From the NCBI GenBank assembly GCA_000004695.1, contig CM000153.2, positions 4,960,001-5,024,000 on the forward strand: a stretch of DNA of 64,000 nucleotides, read 5' to 3'. Numbering within the stretch: the first letter of the stretch is position 1; each line of letters starts with the position of its first letter. This document shows, one piece after another, positions 41,937 through 63,576 of the stretch. The position numbers were made by a program, and so were the translations under genes. The DNA comes from Dictyostelium discoideum. Taxonomy: Eukaryota. The notes under the pieces are model-generated. The model was not told where the DNA came from, searched no databases, and worked only from the letters and a program-made list of their open reading frames with translations.

Positions 41937-44900
41937 TAATTTATTTTTTATATTATTTAAAAGTTTTTTATTATTATTCTTTTTAACAAAATGGTAGGCC
42001 AAAGATATTGAAATCACAGCTACAAATGCTACAGAACCAATAATGATACCAGCTAACTGGCCAGAAGAAAGACCAGATTTTGAATAAGTACAAATATTAT
42101 TTGAATTTGAGTTTTTACTATGATCAATAAGTAGAGAAAAATCTTTTTTTTTTTTTTTTTTTTAAAAATATATAAATAAAAAATAAATTAGTTATTATTT
42201 AGAATAATTAAAAATAATTTTAAAATTTTTAATTATTATTTACCCGGATCAATAATAACATATTCTTTATATTGAGGTATTGAAATTGCTATAAATAATT
42301 GATCTGAATGTGGTGTTGTGTCTATTGTTTTTAATGAATTAAATTCTGATTTTTCTAATATTGTATTTGAAATTGATTTTGGTAAACCATCAATTAATGC
42401 TCTTTTTATGAATCTACCATATAATGAATGATCACCTACTTTAATTTTTAAGTAATTTGAATTATCAATAGAATTTGTTTCACCAAATTCATTTCCAGAA
42501 CAAATATCATTAGTTTTTGAAGATAAAAGAGATGCTGACATAATTAATTCAAGTTGATTTAATTGATTTTTAAAATTATAATTTGAAAATGAAATTGTAT
42601 ATTTTATAGTTGATGGATTCATAATGAGTGATTGATTTGCAAATGAAATATTTGTTTCTTTTGTAAACCATTGTAAAGTTGTATTTATATAGGTTGTTGT
42701 TGTTGAAATTCCATCAATAGTAGTTGGTGGAACAATGATTGATGTTTGGTATAGGTTAGTTTCATTATTAATTTTTGTAAGGTTCCACTTTTCAAAATAA
42801 TATTCATTTACAACCTTTGAATTAAAATCAATTTCTCTAATTCCAATCAATGAAACAATTGATTTAAATGAATAATCTTGAATATTTGATGTTGATGTTG
42901 AATTTGGTGTTATTATAATTTCAGTGGTTGGGTCATTTGGATTTGGTTTTGGTTGTGGAATTATGATTACTTGTGAACTACAATCATTACCAATCCAAGG
43001 TGAATAGCAAACACATCCAACATTTGTTAAACAATAACCTTGATTTTTACCACCACAAATTGGTTCACCAAAACATAATTGTGGTGGATTTGTTGGTAAT
43101 GGAGTTGTTGGTGTGGGTGTTGGAGGTAAATCATATGATATATTGAAAATTTTTGGTACAACTGTAAATTTGTTTGAAATGGAAATTAGATTTCCACTCA
43201 TATCAAATTCCATAATATAAATTATAAATGGTTTTGTAGTTGCATTTACCATTACCGAAAAAGCACTAGAGTATACAGTAATTGGGGGTTGTTCATATTT
43301 ATTTAATGTTTCAGTGTAATTGATATAAACAACAAATGAAGAATACATATTTCCATTAGGATCAATAAAATCTTTATAAAAATTACTACCCAATACCCAT
43401 AATAAACCACCTTTTTCATTAATTGTACTTGTATCTGTAATAGTCATAGTATCAGGCATAAAATCAATAATTAAACCATTATATCTATTTGTCCAACCAT
43501 TTGATCCCAGTGTGTGAGAAGAGTAACCACTATAGTATCCTAAATTATTTATAAATCCATAAACACTAAAAATAAATTCACTTCTAAAACCAAAACCATA
43601 TGGTACATTAATACTACATGTATATCTACAAGTATTTATAGAAGATTGAGAAAATAATTTTGAATAACATTTAATAGAATCAAAAAATAATGTAGATATG
43701 TAAATAATTGGAGTTTGATCAATTCTAATACCAGAATCCAAATCTGTTACAGTGAAATTAAAATTGAAAACACCATTTGGAAATTCATACATTTGGAAAT
43801 CTGTTAAAAATGGAACTGTATTACCACCGGTATTTGAACAAAAGTTTGGGACAATTCTATTATTGAAATCCATAAAATTAATGAACGGATTTTGAATTGG
43901 TTCTACAACATTACCATTTTCTGAAAATATAGCTCTATTCATTTGAGTATCATATAATTCAACATATGTGATTGAATAATTTTGTGGAACACATGATAAA
44001 GGGATTGGTATCCATAATTGATAAAAACCAGATTTATCATCACCACTTGATAATTTAACATTAATTTCATTTCGAAGTAACTGTCTCTTATAATTTTGTC
44101 CTGTTGGTTCTAAATAGAAAATATAAGTTGAACTATCTAATTCACCTGAAATTTTAATAGTACCATTTTTAAAACCATTGATTGGATCATAAATATTAAT
44201 TTTCAAACCAACTTCAAGACTAGTTGAAATTACACTTAAATTATTTATTACAGGACCATATCCATCATAATTTTTACTAATACAAGTTAATTGAACTGAT
44301 TTTGATAGGTATGAACTAAAAAGTGTTGCTAAATTTCCATCAACGATATCTTTTATATATGACCATCCACCAAATACTAATTTCCAAGGAATAACTCCAC
44401 TTTGAGTATTTGATGGTATTTCAAATTCAACTTGAAATAATTTAATTGTTGAATTCCATTTTGAATAATAAACTTTACCAATACCATCATTCTCTATTTG
44501 ATTTAATGAAACCCTATCTAATAATTGAAAACCAATAACTCTTTCCTTTTCAATTGGTTTTGTAAAATTAAAATAAATTATATTTGAAACTGTTTTATTA
44601 GTAATATCAACAACTTGATGTAAATAACTTAAATCACTTATTGAAAATATATCAACATCTAAAATTAATAAATAATAATTATAATTTGTTAATATAAATT
44701 TAAAATAAAATGTAAAAAATTCTTTTTTTTTTTTTTTTTTTTTTTTTTTCAAAAAAATTTACCTTGTAATTTTGGTGGGTATGGTATTCTTTTTAGTGAT
44801 TTTGGACTTGTAATTTCACCAATTTTAAAATCTTGAGTATATCCATAAATATCTTCATATGTTATTATCTCTGGATAATGTAAAAATGTATCAATTACTA

Positions 44901-53004: not shown

Positions 53005-57830
<4,826 letters not shown>

Positions 57831-58336
57831 TTTTTTATATCTTGTTACCCTTTTAAAAGAAAATAAAAATGTTTAGGTTTTATTTCTTTTTTTTTTTTTT
57901 TTTTTTTTTTTTGTATGTGATGATATCATTGTTTAAATTGTTATTAAAATAAAAATTAAAAAATAAATAAAAAAAATAAAACAATAAAAAAATAAAAAAA
58001 TTGTATCAAATTAAAGATATATATATATCACCCGCAAATAATAACATGATCCATATCATTGTAAAATAACCTTTCTGTGTGTTTGGGGGTGTTAATATAG
58101 TGTGTATTTTAAATTTGGGGGTAAAAAAAAAAAAAAATTGCTGGTAACCTTTAAAACTAATAAACAACCCCTAAATAATAATAATTTTATAATAAATCCC
58201 TAAAAAAAAAAAATAAAAAAAAAAAGGTAGATAATGTAAATTGACATAATAAGTTTGTAAATGTGTAAATATTTATTTATTTATTTATTTATTTATTTTT
58301 TATTAATTTTTTTTATATTTTTTTTTATTTATTTAA

Positions 58337-58897
58337 TTAGTTTTTATAATAATTTAATAATTCAATGTAAGGATTACCAGTTATATTTAATAATTTTGCA
58401 AAAGCAGGTTCAGTTTTTAAACCAAACTTTTTTAAATTTATAATATCATTTTTAAATGATTCACCTTTTTCAAAAAGGATTTGATATTCAATTATCATAT
58501 GTCTATAAGCATTTTGTTGTTTTGTTGGTATATTTTGACAAAATATTTCAAATTGGAAACCATCGATTTCAAATTCAGAGAAAATAGTTTCAACACCATT
58601 TACAATATGATTTTTTTTTATTTTAAAATCTTTATAACTTGAAAAGTTTTTCTCTATTGTTGAAATTAATTTCTCTTTATTATTATCATCATCATGATCT
58701 TTCCAACAACAACAAATGTCTAAATCTGAACCTATTATATCAATTTCAATTGGTATTGTACCTGCTAAAATTGGTTCAAACTCTTTTAAAATTTCTATAA
58801 TTTTATTTTCTTTTAATATTTTATATGCATTCTTTTGAACTTGATTCGAACTTTCCTCATTTAAATATTCGATATTATTGAATTTATAAATATCCAT
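58337..58897 (-). CDS. Small nucleotidyltransferase-fold protein (DUF4269-like), 186 aa, intronless
   Basis: It has the minimal NTase signature hG[ST]x(9-12)[DE]hDh as AGTIPIEIDIIGSDLDI. It has no low-complexity tracts or introns. The ORF is clean from ATG 58897. Confidence 0.65.
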   Translation of the reverse strand: MDIYKFNNIEYLNEESSNQVQKNAYKILKENKIIEILKEFEPILAGTIPIEIDIIGSDLDICCCWKDHDDDNNKEKLISTIEKNFSSYKDFKIKKNHIVNGVETIFSEFEIDGFQFEIFCQNIPTKQQNAYRHMIIEYQILFEKGESFKNDIINLKKFGLKTEPAFAKLLNITGNPYIELLNYYKN

Positions 58898-59239
58898 GAT
58901 TGGCTTTTTTTTTTTTTTTTTTTTTTATTTTAAAAGAATTAAACGGCCAATACGGCTTTTTTTTTTCAATTTTTTCAATTTTTTTCTTGAAAATTCTTTA
59001 TTTTATTTATTTTTTATTTATTTTTTTTTAATTTTTTTTAAAATTAAAAATCTTAGTCACTTACCTTTTGAAAAAAAAGAAAAAATCTGTGGTAGAGTAC
59101 CCTAATTTATTGGGAATCAAAAAAAAAAAAAAATTAAAAAAAATTAAACAAAAAGGACCTTTTTAAAAAAAAAAAAAAAAGTATAAATTTAAAACCATAA
59201 TGGTTTTATAAAAAATAAACCGACCAAGTAACCATAGAA

Positions 59240-59724
59240 ATGAAAATATTAGTACTCTTATTATTTTTTTCTATATGTATTGTAAGCTATTCAGTCCAAA
59301 TAGAACAAAATGATTGTATGTTTAATAATTTTTTAATTTTATTTTTGTTTTTCTATTTTTATTTTTCTATTTTTATTTTTTTTATTTTCATTTTTTTATT
59401 TTTATTTTTTTTATTTTTTTTATTTTTCTATTTTTATTTTTATTTTGCTGACCTTCAGAAAAAAAAAAAAAAAAAAAAGATAAATGTCTTGATAATTTAT
59501 TTACTAAAATAGGGAATTTACCTTTATATACTCTTAATACAACGACTCAACAAAGAAATTACTGTGGAACAAACGGTTTAAATATTATCACTTGTTTCAA
59601 TGATACCGTCCAAAGAATTACAATTAGACATGTACCAGCGAAAAAAAATAAATTACTTTCAACTATTGATCTTATTTGTTTTAATTCTTTGATATCGATG
59701 TAATTATTATTTTAATTCTATTTT

Positions 59725-59759
<35 letters not shown>

Positions 59760-59796
59760 TTTTAATTTTTTTTTTCCCAAATATCTAATTTTAATC

Positions 59797-59828
<32 letters not shown>

Positions 59829-60885
59829 TAAATAATAAATAAAAAGAGCTGTTATTGATGCCAATACCGAAAACAATTTCCTTTATGGTGAATTTCCATT
59901 AAAACTCGAAAGTCTTCGTTTGGATAATGGTAATCTAACTTCATTATTTAATTATGTTGATCTTTCATTAGGTTTTAATAATACAATAGTCAGGAATCAA
60001 ATTAAAAAACTTATTTTATATGGTGGAGTTTCAAAATCTGAAAATGTAAATATATATTTTTCAACACTTTCACATTTTTCCAACCTATATTTCTATATCG
60101 AAGATGGTGCCACAATAACAAACCAAACAAATTTCAATTTTATAAATGATTTAAATGAAACAAAGAAATCATCATTCCAATCAATTACAACCTATTGTTC
60201 AAATGTACCATCATTAGACTATAATAATGTTATTTTAAACTATGTGTAAGTTTTTATTTTCTTTTATTTTAAATAAAAATAATAGATAAATAAAATACTA
60301 ATATTAATATGTTTAAAAAACAAAAAAAAAAAAAAGTGAATTTACATATTTACCAAGTTTTGATTATGAATCAGTTTCAAATTATTCAACATATTCAAAT
60401 GTTGTTTCTCTTGAACTTAATTCCAATAAAAATGATCAAGTTTACCCATTCCCATTAGGCCTTTCTAAAATTCCGCCTGGTAATCAGTTAACTTCTTTGT
60501 ATGTTTTAAAGTAATATTATTATTTATTACCCATAAATTAACTTTTTTTTTAATTTTTTTAATTTTTTTAATTTTTTATTAAACATAGATCTATTAATCA
60601 TTTAATAGAAAAGCCTCCTTACTTTATAGATTTATCAAATTTAGATTCAAACATTAGTAGAGGAATATATACTAGTAATCAAATGTTTGTATTAAAAAAT
60701 AAAAAAAAATAAAAAAAATAAAAAAAATAAAAAATAAACTAACTATAATATTATTTTTTTTTTTTTTTTTTTCTAAATAAATAAAAAAAAGAGAAATTTT
60801 AAATGCTGGCAATTCTTTCAATATAGATGGAGTATTTCCCTTCACTTCTTTCCCCAAATATTTAGATTCTTTGTAATTATTAAAT

Positions 60886-60929
<44 letters not shown>

Positions 60930-62826
60930 AATATTATTAATTGATAACTAATATTTCCTTATTTCTTTATTTAGTACCTTTGAATATGGAAATTTAAGCA
61001 GATTACCAGATTTTGAAAATATTTTTAATGAAAATATTGAGTATATAGATATAAGTAATAATATAATTACTGAGAATATAACTAGAACATTAGAATGGCC
61101 AGGAAGAACTATTACACTTTACCTAAGAAACAATCATTTGAAAGGATCAATCGATGAAAGTTGGTGCAAATTTAATCTTGAGATTTATGGAAACTCTCTA
61201 AGTGGTGAAGCTCCATCATGTTTTGTTTGCCACATTAATAGTAATTCCTTTGCTATAACTGGTAACGCATTCTCAAATATGGAACTAAAACCACCATGTA
61301 CCTCTGTGATTTTAAATTTATGGTATGATAATTCGACAAAACTATTGTTTTTGTATGGTCAAGATATTGGATTTGCAAGATCAGATTTTAAATTATCACC
61401 ATCTTCATTCAACCCTTATTGTGGCCTTTTGGATGAAAAGGTTTATGAGAATGTTAGAAATGGTTTGTTTTGTTTAAATTATAGTCTACCTGGTCCAGTT
61501 CCCTTACATATAAATATTACCTACCCAAAAATGCCCTCAAATTCTCCAGTTAAAACATTTGAAATCTCAGCTTACAATATGTATTTACCATTAATTAATA
61601 GTGTTTCAAAAGATTCAAAAACCAATCTATATACTATCGATGGTCAATACTTTGCATACAATAGTACTGTTATTACCGTTTTAGTTGATTCTCAAATTTG
61701 TATTGTAGTATCTTGTAATTTTAGAGAAATCAAATGTTTACTATCGAAAAACAACAACAATAATAAAAACAACATGATTAATACCAATTATTTACTATCC
61801 GTTCAAATTATGAATGTTTCATCAAATTTCAATTTAACTAAATGTCCAAATGATTGTAGTGGCGCTGGTATTTGTGATTTAAATTTAGGTATATGTTCAT
61901 GTAATTCAAATAGAATATTTGATGATTGTAGTGGTTTCAAATGTATTGGAGATTGTACTAGTTTAACAAATTCTGAATGTAACTTTACAATTGGTAAATG
62001 TGAATGTATATCAGGATGGGAAGGTGATGATTGTAAAACTCAATTATTTTGTCCAAATGATTGTAGTGGTAGTGATGCAGGTAATTGTGATTATATAACC
62101 AAAACATGTAATTGTAAACAAGGTAGAACATTTGCATGCAATACTGATTGTTTAAACGATTCAAAATGTAATTTTACAATTGGCAAATGTGAATGTATAC
62201 CAGGGTGGGAAGGTGATGGTTGCAGTATTCGACCAAAATGTCAAAATGATTGTAGTGGTGGTGATGCAGGTAATTGTAATTATATAACTAAAACATGTAT
62301 TTGTAAACAAGGTAGAGCATTAGATGATTGTAGTGGATTTGCATGCAATATTGATTGTTTAAACGATTCAAAATGTAATTTTACTATTGGCAAATGTGAA
62401 TGTAAAGATGGATGGGAAGGTGATAATTGTAACACTAAGCAACCAAATTGTCCAAACAATTGTAGCGAATCAGGTATTTGTGACCGTTCAACTTTGAAAT
62501 GTTTATGTGACTCTGATAGATTATTTGAAGACTGTAGTGGATTGAAATGTATTATAAATTGTAATAACAATTCAATATGCAATAATAAAATTGGTAAATG
62601 CGAATGTCTATCAGGTTGGTTTGGTGATAGTTGTGAAAATTCAGAAAAATCTTCATCTGAATCCTCTGAATCTTCTGAATCTTTATCAAAATCAAACAAA
62701 ACCAAAGTTATATTACTATGCACTATATTGCCATCTATTGCATTGATAGGTATAATTTTGGTGGTCATTTCATTAAAAAAAAGAAAAAATGAAGATCAAT
62801 ATAAGTACCACATTAAATTAAAATAA
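59240..62826 (+). CDS. Receptor-like type-I membrane protein: signal peptide, LRR-like N-terminal region, at least 6 tandem tenascin-type EGF-like repeats, TM, short basic tail; ~7 exons (approx. join 59240..59315,59480..59699,59847..60245,60337..60510,60589..60684,60792..60872,60975..62826)
   Basis: Exon 1 is MKILVLLLFFSICIVSYSVQIEQND, then T|GTATGT. The 5' sites at exons 3 and 4 are canonical (GTAAGT/GTAATA) and phases are consistent. The weakest junction is exon 5/6. EGF repeats have the form CPNDCSG.G.C......C.C......DDCSG. The TM is ILLCTILPSIALIGIILVVISL and the tail KKRKNEDQYKYHIKLK. Confidence 0.5.
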
Positions 62827-62921: not shown

Positions 62922-63576
62922 TTATTTTTGTTGTTGTTGTATTTGTTGTAAATATTGTTCAATTATTGGATTTGATAAAGTTAAAAGTTGTTTATACATT
63001 TCTTTTTTAAATGGTACAGGTAAAGTTTGATCATTATTGTTTGGTTGTTCTTCTTGATTTAAAAAATCATCAAAATTGAACCATTTACATTCGTCAAATT
63101 CTGGTTTTTCTTCAAATCCTAAATCAATCAATGATATTAAATCTTTTGGTAAAAAGAATAAATGCCAATGAATCATTTGGCCATTATGATTAAAAACTTT
63201 ACCAATTGCTTTTGTAATTGAATTTTTATATTCATAGAGATAAGATAATGGTTCCTCTATTTTTGATACAAATCTCAATTTATCATCTGTTACTTCTAAG
63301 CCAACCTCTTCTTTTATTTCTCTTAAAACTGCAACATAATAATCCTCATCCCTCCCTGCTTCCACACCACCTTGTGGAAATTGCCACTATTATTATTATT
63401 ATTAATTAAGAATTTACTTTAATAAAATGAAAGAAATAAAAATAAAAATAAAATAAAAAGAAAACTACCTTTCCAACTGCAGTTTTCTTTTTTGATGCTC
63501 TTTTACACACCAAAACTTGTCCCTGATCATTAAAAATTAATGCACCAACACAACTTCTATATTTAATATTACTCAT
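62922..63576 (-). CDS. Nudix hydrolase (Ap4A-hydrolase-like); model join(63576..63469,63386..62922)
   Basis: Exon 1 is MSNIKYRSCVGALIFNDQGQVLVCKRASKKKTAVGK, then GTAGTT at 63468. The 82-nt intron ends AATAATAG at 63387 in phase 0. Exon 2 is WQFPQGGVEAGRDEDYYVAVLREIKEEVGLEV, which is the Nudix box GX5EX7REUXEEXGU. Confidence 0.75.

Follow-up and report, generated by a model that had tools for sequence, protein, structure and literature searches.

Does the small gene DDB_G0286879 of the social amoeba Dictyostelium discoideum derive from bacteria, and what kind of enzyme does it encode? The gene lies on the minus strand at positions 58337..58897 of a 64,000-nucleotide stretch of DNA (the window; assembly GCA_000004695.1, contig CM000153.2, positions 4,960,001-5,024,000 of the forward strand), to which all coordinates refer. 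A sequence-only reading of the window had described an intronless 186-aa gene for a minimal, bacterial-looking nucleotidyltransferase and had put it forward as a candidate for horizontal transfer. Here we report that, judging from sequence comparisons, Bacteroidota bacteria are almost certainly the source from which DDB_G0286879 was acquired. The best explanation overall, which we regard as likely, is that it is a functional nuclear gene, derived from Bacteroidota and encoding a Pol-beta-type nucleotidyltransferase, for which a small-molecule acceptor is weakly suggested.

Relatives and phylogenetic position of DDB_G0286879

An unbroken ATG..TAA open reading frame (ORF) of 186 codons occupies this interval exactly, and the encoded protein is identical to the annotated D. 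discoideum AX4 protein (DDB_G0286879 / XP_637502.1 / UniProt Q54L61), which UniProt already titles 'DUF4269 domain-containing protein'. Because the ORF is unbroken and the protein can be aligned from its first to its last residue with bacterial homologues of 170-180 aa, the gene has no intron, as had been proposed. A single Pfam match was obtained, to PF14091 (DUF4269; E 1.5e-57, 194.6 bits, cut-off 28.9), the family to which the protein had been likened. Residues 26-183 matched positions 1-151 of the 151 in this profile, so that the gathering threshold is exceeded over the whole domain. No NCBIfam model matched the protein, and sequence searches of the PDB with either the single protein or a profile returned nothing even at E <= 10.

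Relatives were sought among 5.8 billion proteins, and the best 120 matches were considered. The top matches were the proteins of two other D. discoideum strains (98%), followed by that of D. purpureum (60% identity). Beyond Dictyostelium, all taxon-named matches among these 120 were from Bacteroidota (47-57% identity), including Pedobacter, Flavobacterium, Mucilaginibacter, Dyadobacter, Siphonobacter, and Zobellia, and the best 80 loci among 185,579 GTDB species genomes were also exclusively from this phylum (80/80, in five classes). These results bear out the expectation that the top hits would be Bacteroidetes. Broadly eukaryotic homologues, which would have spoken for a different history, did not appear, the only eukaryotic relatives found in protein databases being those of the D. 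discoideum strains and D. purpureum. More distant members of the DUF4269 family occur in Bacillota (45%), Alphaproteobacteria (~30%), and Cyanobacteria.

The bacterial PF14091 members from Flavobacterium, Pedobacter, and Dyadobacter are, like DDB_G0286879, single-domain proteins of equal length with homology over the full length (47-57%), and a common set of invariant residues is found in both (G46, T47, S57, D58, D60, E117, Q128, H133, E137, K156, T162, and E163). The amoeba gene differs from these bacterial members in its AT-rich host codon usage, its two small insertions, and its eukaryotic context.

To place the amoeba proteins within the family, 500 neighbor-joining (NJ) bootstrap trees were rooted on Alphaproteobacteria. 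Bacteroidota were monophyletic without Dictyostelium in 0/500 replicates, that is, the amoeba pair was nested within the phylum in 500/500, while the D. discoideum and D. purpureum proteins themselves were monophyletic in 92-98% of bootstraps. The sister of this pair was purely Flavobacteriia in 367 of the 500 replicates (73%; 45 labelled sequences). The mean distance between D. discoideum and Bacteroidota (0.80) equals the mean distance within Bacteroidota (0.78). These data are consistent with a single horizontal transfer that would have brought the gene from a Bacteroidota bacterium into the Dictyostelium lineage before the divergence of D. discoideum and D. purpureum, with Flavobacteriia-like sequences as the most frequent sister of the pair. 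Following entry, the gene would have been fully recoded to the base composition of the host, gained an Asp/Asn loop insertion, and stayed under purifying selection.

Dictyostelium is known to carry a set of bacterial-origin genes, and the suggestion that DDB_G0286879 belongs among them is borne out on the same grounds as were applied to the published set of horizontal gene transfers (Sucgang et al. 2011 Table 2; Gloeckner et al. 2016). In common with the genes of that set, it encodes an essentially bacterial Pfam domain, is embedded in a bacterial clade (NJ, 500 bootstraps), and has an orthologue in D. purpureum. Its nearest relatives beyond the dictyostelids are prokaryotic in both the protein and the GTDB searches, and its integration in the genome is indicated by its host-like composition, by the host sequence flanking it, and by its occurrence in a related species. 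Neither the gene nor DUF4269 appears in the table of 16 candidates compiled by Sucgang et al. 2011 (Table 2), and the gene is also absent from the four developmental genes that Gloeckner et al. 2016 attribute to lateral gene transfer. No mention of DDB_G0286879, under any identifier, was found in the literature searched. Few bacterial genes are listed as fixed in social amoebae, which prey on bacteria, and DDB_G0286879 is a further clean and well-supported example whose donor phylum is common in soil. No concept is changed by this finding, as Dictyostelium is already known to have received genes horizontally and the DUF4269 label in UniProt pre-existed. An earlier list of Dictyostelium genes of bacterial origin is said to have been given by Eichinger et al. 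2005 and was reportedly updated by Sucgang et al. 2011.

Predicted fold and catalytic signature

An AlphaFold2 model of the protein, built from a 34-sequence alignment, was predicted with high confidence (pLDDT, the predicted local distance difference test score, 94.9; predicted template modelling score, pTM, 0.89). In this model, an N-terminal helical segment, which carries the family-conserved residue Q21, is followed by an alpha/beta core with predicted strands at residues 43-45, 59-64, 89-99, 102-111, and 114-121 and a helix at 73-85, and then by a C-terminal lobe of four helices (Table 1), in line with the helical C-terminus proposed previously. The C-terminal lobe carries the family-conserved residues Q128, H133, E137, K156, K161, T162, and E163, part of which form a KTEPAF motif, and presumably binds the base or triphosphate of a nucleoside triphosphate (NTP) and the acceptor.

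Both fold searches performed with the model, one of them with Foldseek, returned the nucleotidyltransferase fold that had been predicted from the sequence, with an alpha/beta core that superposes on solved enzymes of the Pol-beta superfamily. The top structural matches were TUT7, TUT4, TUT1, Cid1, GLD-2, and PAP, with DncV, CdnE, and OAS next in rank. They aligned with both lobes over 139-152 of the 186 residues, at 8-17% identity and a template modelling (TM) score of ~0.5. Weak Pfam matches to NTP_transf_2, MTPAP-like_central, and Polbeta were also found on the core region among 150 diverse DUF4269 representatives, drawn from 50%-identity clusters, on which conservation was scored as well.

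Nucleotidyltransferases of the Pol-beta type carry the signature hG[GS]x9-13Dh[DE]h and, on a strand further along the chain, a third carboxylate. In DDB_G0286879, the first two elements lie within residues 45-61 (AGTIPIEIDIIGSDLDI), where 10 residues separate G46-T47 from D58-L-D60-I, a spacing that fits the superfamily signature, and E117 is the predicted third carboxylate. At least 90% of the 150 representatives share each of the residues G46, T47, S57, D58, D60, and E117. The sequence-only reading had recognized the signature as GS-x-DLDI. Its S57-D58-L59-D60 portion is indeed conserved, but G56 is not, being Ser in D. purpureum and E, N, P, S, or D in bacteria, and the canonical glycine motif is instead G46-T47. 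Based on its sequence and predicted structure, the protein can be regarded as a bona fide member of both Pfam DUF4269 and the Pol-beta nucleotidyltransferase superfamily.

Table 1. Coordinates of DDB_G0286879, its predicted elements, and the flanking host genes within the window
Feature	Position	Strand	Basis or remark
Intronless coding sequence DDB_G0286879 (DUF4269, nucleotidyltransferase fold), 186 aa + TAA	58337..58897	-	Exact sequence and full-profile Pfam match
N-terminal helical segment, residues 3-36 (helices 3-7, 10-13, 19-30, 33-36)	58790..58891	-	AlphaFold2 model
Nucleotidyltransferase alpha/beta core, residues 43-121	58535..58771	-	
G46-T47, canonical hG[GS] phosphate-binding motif	58757..58762	-	At least 90% in 150 representatives; invariant in a smaller homologue alignment
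S57-D58-L59-D60, predicted first two metal-binding carboxylates	58718..58729	-	TCA GAT TTA GAC
HDDDNN (residues 68-73), low-complexity insertion in a loop, specific to Dictyostelium	58679..58696	-	Homologue alignment
E117 in strand 114-121 (FEIF), predicted to be the third catalytic carboxylate	58547..58549	-	Codon GAA; invariant in the smaller homologue alignment; strand from model
C-terminal four-helix lobe, residues 129-181 (helices 129-144, 146-157, 162-169, 176-181)	58355..58513	-	AlphaFold2 model
Host neighbor, large Asn-rich DUF7034/DUF7743 protein	53005..57726	-	
Host neighbor, ComC-like with EGF_TEN domains, at least one intron, divergent to DDB_G0286879	59240..62826	+	Context only, outside the transferred unit

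Possible acceptors and functional alternatives

With its fold and an intact two-metal triad, the modelled protein shows the makings of a two-lobed member of the Pol-beta superfamily, compact at ~175-186 aa. In such an enzyme, D58, D60, and E117 would coordinate two Mg2+ ions, the triphosphate of the NTP would be positioned by G46-T47, S57, and the lysines K156 and K161 of the C-terminal lobe, and a nucleoside monophosphate would be passed to a hydroxyl of an acceptor held between the lobes. We weakly infer that this acceptor is most likely a small molecule, such as a xenobiotic, a compound resembling an antibiotic, or a metabolite related to nucleotides, because of the domains to which family members are repeatedly fused and the lack of an RNA-binding module. 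Provided that the protein is an active nucleotidyltransferase, we would give small-molecule nucleotidylation slightly less than an even chance.

Longer DUF4269 proteins were found fused to GNAT (n=5), YecM (n=6), and HAD (n=2) domains and, once each, to HIT, APH, DinB_2, low-molecular-weight phosphatase, 5-formyltetrahydrofolate (5-FTHF) cyclo-ligase, nucleoside deoxyribosyltransferase, and NUDIX domains, with the GNAT and the YecM (VOC-fold) fusions occurring in both domain orders. These partners are enzymes of small-molecule and nucleotide metabolism, not RNA-binding modules. The GNAT and APH fusions recall bifunctional antibiotic-modifying enzymes. As a separate observation, the recurrent link between YecM and DUF4269 may join two families of unknown function.

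The enzymes that modify aminoglycosides (ANT) and lincosamides (Lnu) are organized like DDB_G0286879, with the nucleotidyltransferase core at the N-terminus and a helical lobe at the C-terminus, and a functional analogy between them is possible. Membership in the ANT and Lnu families was itself rejected, as no Pfam or NCBIfam match was obtained, and DUF4269 occurred in 12 of 72,556 plasmid records and in no phages. GrpB (UPF0157; PDB 2nrk), another small protein of nucleotidyltransferase fold and unknown function, is 10% identical to DDB_G0286879, and no Pfam GrpB match was obtained, indicating a separate family.

It is also conceivable that the gene has the same origin, but that its product acts on a nucleic acid or a nucleotide, either as a miniature enzyme tailing the 3' ends of RNA or tRNA or as a synthase of the cGAS/DncV/OAS type. 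The identity of the top structural matches points in this direction, as do the weak sequence matches to the MTPAP-like palm domain and the nucleotide-centered fusions to HIT, NUDIX, nucleoside deoxyribosyltransferase, and HAD domains. There is also a precedent in the bacterial diguanylate cyclase (dgcA) that Dictyostelium co-opted for signaling (PMC4931340). The terminal uridylyltransferases (TUTases) and related enzymes Cid1, TUT4/7, GLD-2, and Tailor have the catalytic carboxylate triad and the G[ST] motif in common with DDB_G0286879. In contrast with these enzymes, DDB_G0286879 is about half the size and 8-17% identical, and lacks a PAP-associated domain or RNA-binding element. Membership in the TUT/PAP group, whose domain pair spans ~300-350 aa, was rejected given the length of 186 aa, DUF4269 as the sole Pfam hit, and target-normalized TM scores of 0.15-0.39.

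In a census of bacterial gene neighborhoods, neighbors were clustered at 80 loci and Pfam was applied to the immediate 75 upstream and 70 downstream Bacteroidota genes. Membership among the cGAS/DncV-like nucleotidyltransferases (CD-NTases) of cyclic oligonucleotide-based antiphage signaling systems (CBASS) was rejected, as PADLOC matched neither the amoeba protein nor two bacterial members, and no effector-like family occurred among the genes of the census. In the absence of a PADLOC match and of an effector-type neighbor, the protein is therefore not CBASS-like. Assignment to MNT-HEPN systems was likewise set aside, as HEPN was not among the most frequent neighbor families in this census. 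A nucleic-acid or nucleotide acceptor is further opposed by the size of the protein, half that of the TUTase/CD-NTase catalytic module with no PAP_assoc or RNA-binding domain detected by Pfam, and by the level of structural similarity, where 8-17% identity and TM ~0.5 amount to a shared superfamily fold only.

We therefore consider a nucleic-acid or nucleotide acceptor rather unlikely, and the same holds for RNA tailing or nucleotide-signal synthesis, as suggested by the structural neighbors, when an active nucleotidyltransferase is presupposed. A bolder form of this idea, in which DUF4269 would represent an unrecognized minimal enzyme of the TUTase/cGAS type, placing an RNA tag or making a nucleotide signal, and would have been captured by group-4 Dictyostelium from Bacteroidota prey for signaling or the handling of bacteria, much like DgcA, appears quite improbable. 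The main value of the finding is practical: a widespread and uncharacterized bacterial enzyme family has a copy in a genetically tractable eukaryote.

Integration in the host genome and selection on the coding sequence

Turning to the transferred gene within its host, the DDB_G0286879 ORF has a GC content of 0.21, and its GC content at third codon positions (GC3, 0.107) is close to that of the long ORFs of the window (0.125), compared to 0.24-0.37 in the bacterial homologues. Relative synonymous codon usage (RSCU) correlated at 0.96 with host ORFs and at 0.62 with bacterial genes. The comparison of codon usage with neighboring genes that had been called for thus gave equal usage, indicating that the transfer is old and ameliorated, and neither recent nor the result of contamination. 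In two further D. discoideum assemblies (three in all), the gene lies between the same neighbors, and the D. purpureum orthologue is likewise intronless.

Long Asn/Gln tracts are absent from the protein, as had been stated, but a short insertion of host type is present. This insertion, HDDDNN, is absent in all bacterial homologues, is shorter in D. purpureum, and is predicted to lie in a surface loop, where confidence in the model is lower (pLDDT 84). A second small amoeba insertion, of two residues near position 14, is also absent in bacteria. The His/Asp codon run at 58679..58699, in the loop after strand 2, encodes HDDDNN, DDDNN, and DDNN in the three D. discoideum assemblies, a length difference of 1-2 codons between strains. 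This variation is a triplet-repeat polymorphism typical of Dictyostelium, here inside a gene of bacterial origin.

Between strains, 7-8 synonymous and 2-3 non-synonymous substitutions were observed, with the silent changes including the codons of G46, S57, and P124. The ratio of non-synonymous to synonymous divergence (dN/dS) from D. purpureum, estimated by the method of Nei and Gojobori (NG86), was 0.17, with dS saturated. The coding sequence is ~98.4% identical between strains, compared to ~91.5% across the surrounding 6.5 kb (55337..61897), the lower value reflecting either quite divergent strains or fast evolution of AT-rich intergenic DNA. These patterns, drawn from sequence comparison, indicate that DDB_G0286879 is under purifying selection.

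They also bear on whether the gene could be a decaying or catalytically dead relic without function in the amoeba. The silence of the literature searched would fit this idea, but the ORF is intact in four genomes spanning a divergence of up to ~400 million years (the estimated age of the D. discoideum-D. purpureum split; PMC3188802), every family-invariant residue has been kept, and both the synonymous excess and the higher identity of the coding sequence relative to its surroundings are at odds with decay. A pseudogene was accordingly rejected on the basis of the intact ORF, the retained invariant residues, and the synonymous excess, and we consider a relic of any kind very unlikely.

Alternatively, the gene might be an ancient, vertically inherited eukaryotic gene that was lost almost everywhere, or might have passed from Dictyostelium to bacteria. 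The eukaryote search covered protein databases, leaving out unannotated genomes of dictyostelids and other amoebozoans, which leaves some room for vertical descent. However, the DUF4269 family comprises 931 clusters at 50% identity (E <= 1e-3) distributed over Bacteroidota, Bacillota, Alphaproteobacteria, and Cyanobacteria, compared to two eukaryotic species, and the Dictyostelium clade falls inside Bacteroidota in every bootstrap replicate. Moreover, a profile made from the Dictyostelium sequences alone, searched against a database including EukProt, retrieved no further eukaryote, with scores of 336 bits for D. purpureum and at most 223 bits for bacteria. Given the distribution of the family, the nesting, and the profile search, vertical descent and reverse transfer were both rejected as extremely improbable. 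Bacterial contamination or an assembly artefact, for which the exclusively bacterial nearest non-Dictyostelium relatives and the absence of an intron might be cited, has a practically negligible chance of being correct and was rejected as refuted by the host-like composition (GC3 and RSCU), the embedding of the gene in AT-rich host DNA with intron-containing host genes on either side, the identical location of the gene in three independent D. discoideum assemblies along with its presence in D. purpureum, the strain-polymorphic Asp/Asn insertion of host type, and an identity of just 47-57% to any bacterial protein.

Several points nonetheless weigh against the reading of DDB_G0286879 as a Bacteroidota-derived nucleotidyltransferase with a small-molecule acceptor. 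With regard to origin, the trees are NJ trees on ~175 columns, and with denser sampling the sister of the amoeba pair was mostly an unlabelled metagenomic sequence. Because such sequences replace Flavobacteriia under these conditions, the donor class is not fixed below the level of Bacteroidota. Synteny with D. purpureum is one-sided and only suggestive: a ComC-like gene lies upstream of the orthologue and divergent to it, and within the window it is matched best by the gene upstream of DDB_G0286879, but the ComC-like family has several copies and two additional genes lie in between. With regard to function, the fusion evidence comes mostly from metagenomic gene calls, the literature searched describes no experimentally characterized DUF4269 member, and the sole paper found to name DUF4269 does so for a Synechocystis gene in a table of RNA sequencing data. 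In addition, the Bacteroidota DUF4269 neighborhoods are lineage-specific and contain no functional partner (75 loci). A PMT_2 glycosyltransferase gene lies upstream in Flavobacterium and ileS-dksA-lspA upstream in Pedobacter, and other neighbors include DUF1456, methyltransferase, and Ppx-GppA-like genes. With only lineage-specific neighbors, no functional inference can therefore be based on operons, and the contexts in Bacillus, Rhizobium, and Azospirillum gave no functional lead.

Mobile elements and genomic surroundings

The plasmid records carrying DUF4269 are all large replicons. No relative of the DDB_G0286879 protein was found in phage genomes (tblastn) or IMG/VR viral contigs, and a viral vector is therefore not indicated. 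A viral structure library yielded generic nucleotidyltransferase folds only, at up to 20% identity. One record in PLSDB, 'plasmid p1' of Bacillus sp. N5-665 (NZ_CP093325.1), is 5.5 Mb in size with 25 annotated features and looks like a chromosome. It carries an unannotated DUF4269 gene whose product is 45% identical to the amoeba protein and is not separated from Bacteroidota in NJ trees, a placement that hints at another inter-phylum transfer.

The genes flanking DDB_G0286879 are AT-rich and typical of Dictyostelium, and searches around the gene with Rfam, a tRNA scan, and the DUSE motif returned no match. The gene sits inside a cluster of paralogous surface-protein genes of the ComC-like/EGF_TEN/DUF7034/DUF7743 type, comprising the two host neighbors of Table 1 and a further member at ~42242..43042. 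According to Gloeckner et al. 2016, comC itself occurs only in group 4 dictyostelids, and gene families for secreted or cell-surface proteins have undergone both gain and loss. Beyond the ComC-like neighbor, a 147-aa ORF at 62922..63365 on the minus strand contains a NUDIX hydrolase domain (Pfam E 2.6e-09) and probably represents a single exon of a host gene. The proximity of this domain to DDB_G0286879 and the NUDIX-DUF4269 fusion in one bacterial representative are probably coincidental.

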